Below, piece after piece: positions 17,731-41,078 of a stretch of 64,000 bases of DNA. Each line of letters starts with the position of its first letter. Position 1 is the stretch's first letter. The notes below the pieces were generated by a model, which was not told where the DNA came from, did not search any database, and saw only the letters and a program-made list of their open reading frames with translations. Both the position numbers and the translations under genes were made by a program. The stretch is taken from the NCBI GenBank assembly GCA_964016885.1, contig OZ024742.1:20398001-20462000 (forward strand), written 5' to 3'. The DNA comes from Eledone cirrhosa (Eukaryota).

Positions 17731-17782
17731 AAAATATTAAACAAATAATGAATAAACAATTCCTTATATTAAACAAAAAAAG

Positions 17783-17937
17783 TTCATTATTTAACGATCG
17801 TTTCTAGGATATATATGTGTTAGAATTGGTATGCATATTCAACAGATCTATGTACAAAATTATACAAAATTATACAAATTATCAAGATTAAATATACATA
17901 CCAAACACATATATACGCCGTCTTCAGAAATAATGAA
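17783..17937 (-). ncRNA. Hammerhead ribozyme with extended stem II (D1 inverted arm)
   Basis: Reverse complement of 25558-25712. Confidence 0.8.
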
Positions 17938-20369
17938 GTATATTTATTGATAATAACAACAATTCAAAATTTCAGTTCAAAATTGACCAATGAAAACACA
18001 AAGGGTTAAATGCAGTTAGGTGTGTGTATATACATGTAAAACCCTTACACATATTTTACAAAAATGTATGTATAATTTGTATACGCATACTAAAAGGATG
18101 GATGCAAATACAAAATTTCAAGGTTAATGTCTCTGTAAGCTTACAATGCGCAGATAAGATGCGCATTGATACTTATGGAGTCAAGTATATAAATATATTT
18201 CTACATACTCACACATATCAGTACAATCACACATACACGCGCGTATATGCATAAATATACACATAACCACGAACATACAAACACACACACAACCCCCACT
18301 CACATTTATATATGTGGATATAAAATCATAAGCACATGGATATTAATTCACTCACATAAAACACTGGCACACACATTTTTAGATCAAGATACGGAAATTA
18401 GGTGGGAGGGGGGGGGAGGGGTCAGTATTCAACTGTCTGAGCAAACTGCCTAATATAAATGTATCTATAAATTAAGAAAAATAAAAAAATAAAACAATAA
18501 AATATAATAAATATAATATAATATACATACACATACAGATATATACACATACATACATGTACACGCACATAGAAATATTTACACATACACACATACGCAC
18601 ATACAAATACAGTCATACACACACATACACCTACACGAACATACACATACACATATATAAAGATATATATATATACACACACACACACGCAACACATACA
18701 CACATACACATATATATAAAAAATAAATAATAAAGATATATACATATATATATATACACATACATATATATATATACATATATACATATACATACACATA
18801 CATCTAAATATACATACACATACATACACACATACATGTACATACATGTACATACATATACATACATCGATATACATATATATATATATACATATACACA
18901 CACATAGACATATAGATACATACACACACAACTTACATACACACATACATATATACATGTATATTCATACATAGAATTAGATATATAATCATACATACAT
19001 ATGCACTTACTTATACTCATATATATAAATACATACGCATCCATATATGCGTATATACATAAAAAACCCCTACAACCTCACCTAACTCAGACATACAAAT
19101 AAAAATAATAATAAAAAGGCATATGTATATACATACACACACGCATTAATAGAGATATATATATACACACATACATACACATATATATATATATATATAT
19201 ATACACATATATATATATATATATATATACACACACATACACTCATACGTATATATATATATATATATATACACATAGATATCCACACACTCATACCACC
19301 ATAAATACACATACAAACACCCATATATACATATATATACACACGTATATATATATATATATATATACACACACACATAAAAAACAGACATGCACATATA
19401 TATATATTTTTTTACACTTATATATACACATATTATATACACATACACAATCTCACTTATACACACATACACATAAGTTATATTATAATAATAAAGAATA
19501 ATATATATATATATATATATATATACATATATATATATATATACATACATACATACATATACATACATACATATAAACATATACATACATAAATACACAC
19601 ATACGAATATATACATATATTCACACATAGACACCTATATATATATATATATATATATATATATATATATATATACATACACACATACATATACACAGAC
19701 ACATATACACACTCACATATATATATATGTGTGTGTGCGTGCACACACACACATATATACACACACACACACATATACACATAAACACATACATATGCAT
19801 ACATGCACACACACGCACATATATCACATAGATACGAAGATAAACATATAAATAGAGAGACATACATATATATACAACACACATACACACACATACATAC
19901 ACACGCATATACATATACATATATATATACACATATATATATTCCTATATATACATGCATACACATATATACACATATATACACATACATACACATATAC
20001 GTACACACATTCACATACACATACATATATAATGCATATATACACATATATACATACATATACACACTCATATATACACACGCAATCTTACATTCATATT
20101 TGCATGCGCATATATGTATTTTTATATTTAGATATAAATACCCAAACCTATATAGACACCTACCTACATATATATTCATACATAGACGCTTACAAATACA
20201 GATGATAATAGTATGGGGGAAAGGGGGGGTTTGGAGAAGGGGATCAAAGTAAATATATGTTTCAAGAAACATAAAATATTTTCCGTATCTTTATCCAATG
20301 TATGTTCTTACATATTTTCAGTGTTAGGAAATACAGCAAACAAGAACTAAGGCAAAATCTATGCATCTC

Positions 20370-22101
20370 TAAAAATATTAGGTGTAAATCTTCTGCTTCT
20401 TTCCTACAATTTGATATAGATAATTACTATTCTTCTATATCACCTATACTCCTGAACAAAGCATTGATATTTGCTAAAAATAGATCTAACTTAACTTTGG
20501 ATGACATTAACATTATTACACATGCTAGACTAACACTTATTGAATTTCAGAATGAATACTGGACCAGAAACACATACAGTAATCTTTTTGATATTACTAT
20601 GGGTTCAAGCGATTCCGCCCAAATTACTGATCTTGTGGGCCTCTTTCTCCTTTTCAACATAAATGCCTCTTTTCCCCACCTCAAAGGTGGTTTATATCGT
20701 GATGACTGTCTTCTTCTTTCTAACAACCTTAGCCTTTCAGAAATCGAAAAAAACAAAAAACATATTCGAACTTTCTTTAAAGACTATTATAATCTTAATA
20801 TTACTTTTGAAAAAACAAGTAAAGTAGTAAATTTCCTAGATATAACTTTAGATTTAGCTACGGGTATCTACCAACCTTACCATAAACCTAACCAAAACTT
20901 ACATTACATACACTCACAATCTAATCACCCTAAATCTATCCTTAAAAACCTTGCATATAATATATCACTTAGAATTTCTAACCTTTCTTCTAACCAAGAT
21001 GTATTTGATAAAAATGCGACCTTCTATAACGAAGCTCTAGATAGAAGTGGCCACAAAAATAGATTAGAGTATATACCTTCTACTAAGAATACTGAAAGCA
21101 TACAACATAATATTACCAACAAACACCAAATGAAAAATACACACCTAAATGCCACCCACACTATACCCCAAAATACTAAATCTTCTAATATAAAGTATAG
21201 TAACTCTCAAAAAACTACTCATCATACAACTATAATAAATATTAATAATAAAACTCCTAATAAAAAGGATAAAACACCTAAATCTACAAATATAACTAAA
21301 AATAGTTGTGGTGAGATCATTAACATTAATCCTCCTAGTAAAAATCACGATACAACCTATAAAAATAATAAAAATAATAAACAACATAGAAACCGTAATA
21401 GACGGGTTACTTGGTATAATGCTCCTTTTAATTTACAAGTTAAGGATAATATTGCTAAAAAATTTTTTTATATCCTTGAGAAAAACTTCCCGCCAAACCA
21501 CAAATACCATCAAATCTTAAATAGGTCTACGGTTAAATTCTCATACTCTACAACAAATAACATAAAACAAAATATAAGTGCATATAATGCATATAAATGT
21601 AAGAAAACCATAAGTATACCACCAGTACATCAAATTAACCATAATATCTCCTCAAATACAGAATTAACGAAAGGATGTAACTGTAGAAACAAAGCAAACT
21701 GCCCATTAAAAAGGAATTGTCTTGTTAACAACATAGTCTATAAATGTAATGTTAAAACTAAAGATTCTATTTGCTCATATATAGGAGCTACCTCTAACAA
21801 TTTTAAGACAAGGTTTAATACCCACAAGCATAGTTTTAAAAATGCCGCACTGGCTAATACAACATCTCTAGCAGAAAAAATCAATAGTTATAAAAATAAG
21901 AATATAAAATATGATTTGACCTGGAGTGTGCTCAAAAGAGCCACCCCTTATCAAAATAATAGAAATGAATGTAGATTATGTTCCCAAGAACTATTTGAAA
22001 TAATGAAGTCTAAGGATATCTTATTAAATAAACGACAGGAATTAATTATATCGTGTAATCATAAACTAAAAAAAACATTTAAATATTATAAACCTAATTA
22101 A
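20370..22101 (+). CDS. 5'-truncated PLE RT-GIY-YIG ORF (open frame, no native start)
   Basis: FLQFDIDNYY, MGSSDSAQ, GLYRDD, VNFLD, CNCRNKANCP, IVY..YIG, CRLC..E. The listed ATG at 20302 comes from the inverted arm. Confidence 0.9.
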
Positions 22102-39800: not shown

Positions 39801-40616
39801 TATGTGTGTATATGTATGTATGTGTGTATATGTATATGTTTATATATGTGTGTGTATGTATGTTCTAAGTGTGGATGTGTGTATATGTATGTATGTGTTT
39901 GTATATGTGTATATATATGTGTGTGTGTATATATGTGTATGTATATATATATATATATATATATATATATATATATATATATATATTTTCTTGATATATT
40001 TCTTTTTTCTTTTTTCTTTTTCTTTTCTTTCCTTTTTAATGTTTATTTATTATTTATTATTTTTTATTTTCTTAGTTTATAGATACATCTATATTAAGCA
40101 GTCTGCCCAAACCGTTGAATACTGACCTCTCCCCCCCTCCCACCTAATTTCTGTATCTTGATCTAAATGTGTGTGCCAGTGTTTATGTGAGTGAATTAAT
40201 ACCCATGTGCTTAGGATTTTATATCCACATATATATATGTGAGTGGGGGTGTGTGTGTGTTTGTATGTTCGTAGTTATGTGTATGTTTATGCATATACGC
40301 GCGTGTGTGTGTGATTGTACGGATATGTGTGAGTATGAAAATATGTGTATACACTTATTTCATATTTATGTGTCTATACGCATCTTATCTGTGCATTATA
40401 AACTTACAGAGACATTAACCTTGAAATTTTGTATTTGCATCCATCCTTTTGGTATGCGTATACAAGTTGTGCATACATTTTTGTAAAATATGTGTAAGGG
40501 TAGTTACATGTATATACACACACCGAACTGCATTAAACCTTTTGTATTTTCATTGGTCAATTTTGTTCCCAAACGGACCTGAAATTTTGAATTGTTGTTA
40601 TTATCAATAAATATAT

Positions 40617-40770
40617 TTCATTATTTCTGAAGACGGCGTATATATGTGTTGGTATGTATATTTAATCTTGATAGTTTGTATAATTTTGTATAATTTTGTA
40701 CATAGATCTGTTGAATATGCATGCAAATTCTAACACATATATATCCTAGAAACGATCGTTAAATAATGAA
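40617..40770 (+). ncRNA. Hammerhead ribozyme with extended stem II (D2 3' end)
   Basis: TTCATTATTT CTGAAGA ... GAAAC GATC GTT AAATAATGAA. Confidence 0.82.
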
Positions 40771-41078
40771 CTTTTTTTGTTTAATATAAGGAACTGTTTC
40801 ATTGTTTATTCATTATTTGTTTAATATTTTATATATATATATATATATATATATATATATATATATATATGTATACATATATATGTATGTATGTATATAT
40901 ATATATATATATATATATATATATATATATATATATATATATATATATATATATACATATATATATATATATATACACATATATATATATATATATATAT
41001 ATATATATATATATATATATATATATGTATATATATACATATACATACATATATATACATGTATGTATATATATGTAT

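Follow-up and report, generated by a model that had tools for sequence, protein, structure and literature searches.

A 64,000-nt window of the 3.0-Gb Eledone cirrhosa assembly (G000:C3:20,398,001-20,462,000; the window is the whole stretch analysed) is a nest of Penelope-like elements (PLEs) seated in (TA)n tracts, and it raises the question of why single insertions of these elements carry two outward-facing ends of different length. The question is posed here for family D, which is present in thousands of copies genome-wide and, judged by its protein motifs, is a PLE of the Hydra clade. Both of its insertions in the window, D1 and D2, consist of an arm bearing the open reading frame (ORF) and an inverted arm, and each arm is joined to (TA)n either at a short site, S, or at a long site, L, located further along the element. 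A preliminary description of the window had proposed that S and L are two fixed 3′ termini, at which the two nicked strands of the self-complementary (TA)n target obligatorily prime reverse transcription, either copy being able to become the long product. The pairing of one S end with one L end was found to be real, genome-wide and general in this genome, and it probably reflects a coupled double priming at two internal sites of the element.

The ends of D1 and D2 (Table 1) are where the preliminary description had placed them, at 17731 and 40830 for S and at 25900 and 34533 for L, and the S-to-L distance of 136 nt was confirmed by measurement in D1. Positions within the family D unit are given relative to L as position 0. 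TA microhomology of 2-3 nt blurs each end, from -136 to -134 at S and from 0 to +3 at L. The inverted arm of D1 is 99.2% identical to 23118-25766 and overlaps the ORF arm by 5 nt at the centre; in D2, 375 nt of the inverted arm are 100% identical to 40458-40832.

For a view of the ends across the genome, the first 100 listed matches to the core of the pseudo-long terminal repeat (pLTR) were taken regardless of their end. They comprised 47 L ends, 46 S ends and one further S end with decayed TA, besides four read-through copies, one copy ending at -170 and one internal junction. The claim of two fixed sites, as opposed to ends scattered over any TA-like microhomology, is thus upheld: the region from -330 to +100 contains 32 such sites, some of them 7-10 nt long, and just two are used, which are not the longest. 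S and L are each followed by 2-3 nt matching (TA)n. Exact patterns matched 2125 S junctions and 4428 L junctions with (TA)n as well as 9338 pLTR cores; the S:L ratio of about 1:2 suggested by these counts was rejected in favour of the 47:47 of the sample, because the exact S pattern missed sequence variants. The sites are not the 3′ termini of the element, since natural tandem copies read through both of them into the 5′ untranslated region and the ORF. Folding of the tail between S and L as a bridge between the two sites was considered and was not persuasive (z-scores of -0.25 to -2.3 in five families). Two kinds of unusual ends were also seen: two long ends of an older subfamily are joined to (CT)n instead of (TA)n (L216, L230), and at G000:C2:32.30 Mb tandem repeats (L020, L021) contain two opposed long ends separated by a short (TA)n, and a small duplicate of the long end.

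Both junctions of every insertion were tabulated in a census of C1 up to 70.2 Mb, for which all S, L and pLTR-core matches were collected, the DNA was retrieved and the ends were called. By hand, one double match was merged, one complex insertion was counted once, one nested solo S copy was separated and one 13-nt L arm was found; one match running off the retrieved DNA was excluded, and an older subfamily was missed. The census yielded 87 insertions, 57 of them two-armed with both ends resolved. As many as 55 of the 57 paired S with L (p of about 1e-15 against an independent choice of ends), none was L/L, one paired L with an end at -170 and one was S/S; in five pairs the arms are separated by 1.2-9.2 kb of unaligned DNA. 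Single-armed insertions numbered 28 (19 L, 9 S), and two more insertions had lost the second end. The youngest insertions, represented by 40 matches identical to the D1 long end, gave 25 resolved insertions, about five loci remaining unresolved: 18 were S+L, one paired L with an end near -590 and six were single-armed, so that 18 of 19 two-armed young insertions carry one S and one L end. Nearly all two-armed insertions thus pair a short with a long end, as had been predicted, and the second arm is not the outcome of random 5′ inversion. The word obligatory goes too far in view of the single arms in both sets. Several of these begin within the element's own TA tracts, and therefore some may be deletions.

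Two apparent S/S pairs were rejected as independent cases. One proved to be a lone S copy lying inside an L arm; the other is a palindromic duplication that includes host flank and is therefore secondary. The latter lies at G000:C1:30,693,540-30,705,090 (L038, L138, L139), where the host flanks are also inverted copies. At a distance of 2.7 kb there is an L arm with the same private variant, and it meets, head to head, the inverted beginning of an ORF from another Hydra-like family.

The rule extends beyond family D. All four other PLE insertions of the window (families A, B, C and E; Table 1) have one long and one short end, and sampling of 30 loci each gave 9 of 9 S+L pairs for family B and 8 of 10 for family C. 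One family B copy (L246) ends within the tail at (ATT)n.

Table 1. Features of the window, with positions counted from its first nucleotide
Feature	Position	Strand	Description
D1 inverted arm	17731..20374 (aligned from 17729)	-	unit position 3602 to short end S, joined to (TA)n
D1 ORF arm	20370..25900	+	unit position 866 to long end L
D1 5′-truncated ORF	20370..22101	+	YRDD, CxCx5C linker, GIY-YIG-type nuclease with CxxC and CxH
Inferred capped transcription start, -339	25561	+	A of TCA(+1)TT; genome-wide hot spot of arm 5′ ends
Candidate type I hammerhead motif	25558..25712	+	10-bp stem I, CTGAAGA, long stem II, GAA, palindromic stem III
Short site S within the D1 long arm	25764..25766	+	read through; TAT microhomology
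S-to-L tail of D1	25765..25900	+	136 nt
D2 inverted arm	34533..35041 (aligned from 34530)	-	-489 to long end L, joined to (TA)n
D2 centre junction	35042..35060		short duplication, locally templated
D2 ORF arm	35061..40830 (aligned to 40832)	+	unit position 843 to short end S
Family A insertion (Hydra-like)	1043..6164	ORF arm -	ORF arm long, inverted arm short; tail of ~167 nt
Family B insertion	8247..10766		ORF arm long, inverted arm short; tail of 41 nt
Family C insertion (Hydra-like)	13391..16948		ORF arm short, inverted arm long; tail of ~99 nt
Family E insertion (Hydra-like)	27388..32818		ORF arm long, inverted arm short; tail of ~77 nt

The reading that we favour, at a probability of roughly two thirds, is a coupled twin target-primed reverse transcription, in which, inside a single complex, one nicked strand would prime at S and the other at L, both on capped sense RNA. 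The GIY-YIG domain would nick both strands of (TA)n, and each 3′-OH would anneal through 2-3 nt, TAT at S and ATA at L. Two antisense cDNAs would then be extended 5′-ward, either stalling on the way or running to the cap at -339, and host end-joining would link the cDNA 3′ ends head to head and fill in the second strands. Priming in the first pLTR would result in mini palindromes of 205+340 nt, while priming in a downstream pLTR would give the ORF-bearing and tandem arms. The idea of double priming at two programmed sites is accordingly kept from the preliminary description as the best account of the fixed S/L pairing, stripped of its obligatory character, of the 3′ termini and of the equality of the arms.

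The arms themselves bear on the last point. Among the 55 S+L insertions, only the S arm extends to the ORF in six, only the L arm in four and both arms in six, and hence either arm can carry it, as D1 and D2 had suggested. Yet the arms are not interchangeable, as S reaches further 5′ in 27 insertions and L in six, with ties, defined as both arms starting within 15 nt of each other, in 22 (p 0.0003). Among the young insertions S reaches further in nine and L in six, with three ties. Over the shared stretch, a median of 0 changes separates the arms of one insertion (41 pairs, one mis-paired nested copy included), compared with 7 between insertions; by this comparison the arms of one insertion share a source.

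A shared source would also be provided by a palindromic DNA intermediate, which self-priming or fold-back would create, perhaps from an antisense template, a staggered endonuclease cut then leaving the tail on one side. These ideas have been published (Arkhipova 2013, PMC3846280; Craig 2021, PMC8557442; here and below the cited papers are used in the portions available to us), and the near identity of the arms and the 22 tied insertions, often near-perfect palindromes, are in keeping with them; S+L pairing would follow from the stagger of the cut. An arm made in this way must, however, sit inside its template arm, whereas in 27 of the 55 insertions, D2 included, neither arm can be a copy of the other, because the S arm has 5′ sequence that is absent from the L arm and only the L arm has the tail. 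Simple fold-back therefore fails for these insertions. Moreover, spacer-less palindromes with a 2-nt overlap fit the annealing of two ends, and an extra G is found 5′ of the sense strand, in some insertions in both arms. We consider an intermediate of this kind unlikely.

The extra G is connected with the start of the arms. In 17 of the 55 insertions, all of them mini insertions, both arms start between -345 and -330, and the commonest start is -339, where the sequence TCATT is initiator-like; on this sequence evidence -339 probably is the capped transcription start of the sense RNA. In 566 copies an extra G precedes -339, at a place where the element in the genome otherwise has C. It accounts for 22% of the countable 5′ ends, which may be an underestimate if the older subfamily has a templated A there, versus 9% (39/425) one base further in (p 5e-11), and all 30 loci examined are true 5′ ends, located in S arms, in L arms and in a few cases in both. 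An extra G from copying of the cap is known for long interspersed nuclear elements (LINEs). The common 5′ stop of the arms and the extra G are as expected if capped sense RNA was copied. Splicing as the origin of the -339 ends, considered since an intron in D. virilis ends at helix I, was rejected because no AG precedes -339 and the sequence before the G varies between copies. The centre junctions differ from locus to locus, with overlaps of 1-13 nt or short templated insertions, and therefore each event makes its own junction. The ORF arms of D1 and D2 are both truncated near unit position 850-870, a hot spot that was not seen in the census.

Position -339 falls within a candidate hammerhead motif (Table 1), in which all core motifs and stems were recognized by eye in the layout of File S2 of Craig 2021 (PMC8557442), with a stem II of more than 100 nt that distinguishes it from those of the Hydra clade; a search of Rfam returned no ribozyme match for it. 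A transcript with the inferred start at -339 would lose 3 bp of stem I, and therefore ribozyme stability would differ between monomer and read-through transcripts. Hammerhead cleavage was rejected as the maker of the ends, the predicted cut near -198 matching neither S, L nor -339.

A further alternative is that two primings occur without coupling, the nicks differing in site preference by timing or target geometry and no RNA being shared. Single arms of both kinds (19 L, 9 S) would be natural products of such events, and at C1:30,707,700 an L arm stands head to head with an inverted ORF fragment whose match to family D is only ~80%. Against it, about half of the pairs should then be S/S or L/L, and the two arms of an insertion are far closer to each other than the subfamilies are (median 7 changes), which makes uncoupled priming quite improbable. 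Finally, S might arise only once the element is in place, through a deletion that joins a TA-like site to the neighbouring (TA)n, or the structures might be assembly artefacts. This view is largely refuted already and very improbable: it can draw on the TA microhomology of both sites, the difficulty of assembling palindromes, the duplicated host flank of the sole S/S case and the lack of spanning raw reads for D1 and D2, but it is contradicted by the use of two out of 32 TA-like sites, by the 47:47 ratio, by the youngest copies obeying the same rule, by five families each with its own fixed pair and by raw reads of other sequencing runs.

These reads stem from three other restriction site-associated DNA sequencing (RAD-seq) runs labelled as the same species, in which the junction of S to (TA)n was seen in 418, 444 and 367 reads and strand-switch reads at -339 numbered 2-6 per run. 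The check covered the S junction and the -339 centre, the L junction falling outside. Raw-read support, which the preliminary description had called for, is therefore available for the S-(TA)n joint and the -339 fold joint, while the centre junction of D2 itself was not seen in the RAD-seq reads.

With regard to how coupled twin priming would proceed, we prefer a version with a single RNA that is copied from S to begin with and then from L, the second copying displacing the first strand, although taken alone it holds somewhat less than half of the total probability. Ordered copying of one RNA would account for no site being used twice, for S usually leading and for single arms leaning towards L; the lean of 19 to 9 is suggestive only. 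The alternative version has two RNAs held by an asymmetric dimer. A structure prediction for a dimer of residues 1-245, run without alignment, gave an uncertain fold.

Several observations weigh against coupled twin priming. The single arms (28/87 and 6/25) mean that double priming is either non-obligatory or that its trace is often lost, and the ends at -170 and near -590 and two odd family C pairs depart from the rule. In the young set alone the lead of S is not significant (p 0.61). The one-RNA version demands displacement of up to 5 kb, for example at C1:49,909,047, where both arms extend from position 1083. Most -339 ends are without the G, and untemplated addition by the reverse transcriptase (RT) could be its alternative source. 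In addition, in the in vitro work of Frangieh 2024 (PMC11167929) the start site was alike for the top and the bottom strand, which neither shows nor excludes coupling.

It is tentatively suggested that endonuclease-positive (EN+) PLEs across clades integrate by a twin priming that is programmed and ordered and uses a single capped sense RNA, with reverse transcription at S followed by a second at L that would displace the first cDNA. If this is true, inverted pLTRs, one-sided tails and solo mini palindromes are products of one reaction, and the element mends the two sides of the double-strand break that it has made and need not copy the second strand itself. The self-complementary (TA)n target, which the preliminary description had made part of the mechanism, is probably not needed, as a one-sided tail of the same kind has been described for a rotifer element with a 9-bp target duplication.

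Further features of the window concern its repeats. A repeat of ~610 nt with (TA)n on both sides and no open frame is found at 33741-34352, 41077-41687, 26128-26560 and 12174-12540, and also beside family D arms at G000:C1:5,221,400 and 15,753,700. Two of its copies flank D2 as a 1-kb direct repeat of 92% identity, which reflects either an array entered by D2 or a large duplication. Minisatellites with periods of ~16 nt and 28 nt are located at 44068-45600 and 57022-57860, respectively.

The family D unit, taken from a natural tandem copy, is 6399 nt long, and its full ORF (L061:7145-9586) starts 156 nt past L and encodes a protein of 812 amino acids, in which an RT with the motif YRDD and a GIY-YIG-type endonuclease with a C-terminal YIG motif are combined. 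This single ORF, together with partial-tandem pLTRs in direct 6399-nt units and inverted arms, is characteristic of EN+ PLEs. The protein has 119 homologues; in a Pfam search it had no match, and GIY-YIG was matched for the family B and C proteins, family B having a non-Hydra nuclease with an internal CxxC. Comparison with the Hydra clade (Craig 2021, PMC8557442) showed that family D shares RW[K/R] (RWR at residue 37), DKT (residue 115), the absence of GxKF/Y, the CxCx5C linker (CNCRNKANC) and the (TA)n target, to which the candidate motif would add the hammerhead. It also shares the CxxC (CRLC in D1 and D2, altered in the L061 copy) and CxH (CNH), which in that clade stand around the nuclease end instead of CCHH. 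In contrast to the Hydra consensuses of 1.1-3.0 kb, the unit of 6.4 kb has a long microsatellite-rich 3′ region; the shortness (<3 kb) is described by the authors as a tendency and not as a criterion. The family D tail of 136 nt likewise exceeds the 30-40 nt of that clade.

Tails of this kind have been noted before. Craig 2021 (PMC8557442) described the 30-40-nt tail as often present at one end only, suspected resolution by the endonuclease, noted an inverted 5′-truncated copy of Penelope-13_HM and named the origin of tandem and inverted structures and of the one-sided tail an open question; Arkhipova 2013 (PMC3846280) proposed self-priming on an antisense template, and Cervera 2014 (PMC4209133) noted close hammerheads on opposite strands. 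In the accounts of Craig 2021 and Arkhipova 2013 the tail is optional, whereas in family D S and L are near-strictly complementary, and the non-nested arms and the cap-like G on the sense strand are likewise unlike the published tail accounts. For Poseidon PAc of the green anole, Frangieh 2024 (PMC11167929) found in vitro two internal RT start sites bounding the tail, nicking and extension of both target strands, an AT-rich target and a predicted dimer, leaving the steps after first priming unvalidated. The nicking and extension of both strands and the two internal sites seen in vitro speak in favour of twin priming in family D. The likeness to family D lies in the two internal sites bounding a tail and in the AT-rich target; the PAc sites are 111 nt or more inside the ORF and 30-40 nt apart, those of family D 156 and ~290 nt upstream of the ATG. 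The available portions of that paper contain no statement that both sites are used per insertion and no link to an inverted arm, and those of PMC9977147, PMC6431247, PMC12910113 and 10.64898/2026.07.22.740005 add nothing on pairing. One-sided tails, two RT start sites and extension on both strands are thus already published (Craig 2021, Frangieh 2024). The near-strict S+L pairing and its reading as coupled twin priming were not found in print, nor was PLE twin priming stated anywhere in the literature found, and older statements may exist in earlier papers.

The pairing, the non-nested arms and the cap-like G offer a sharp test for the existing in vitro system and argue against the proposal of antisense self-priming. 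For annotation, the length difference between the two ends of a PLE insertion should be expected to be fixed within a family and to be its own in each family, here in the range of 41-167 nt. The closest parallel to the proposed mechanism is twin priming of LINE-1 (L1), in which the second nick primes a second cDNA and an inverted 5′ part is joined by microhomology. Only a minority of L1 events take this course; the second site varies, and the two parts lie side by side without overlap. In family D, in contrast, the second site is fixed, the arms overlap and about two thirds of the events are two-armed. Family D would work like L1 twin priming without being the same, and a normal route with two primings would set PLEs apart from LINEs.

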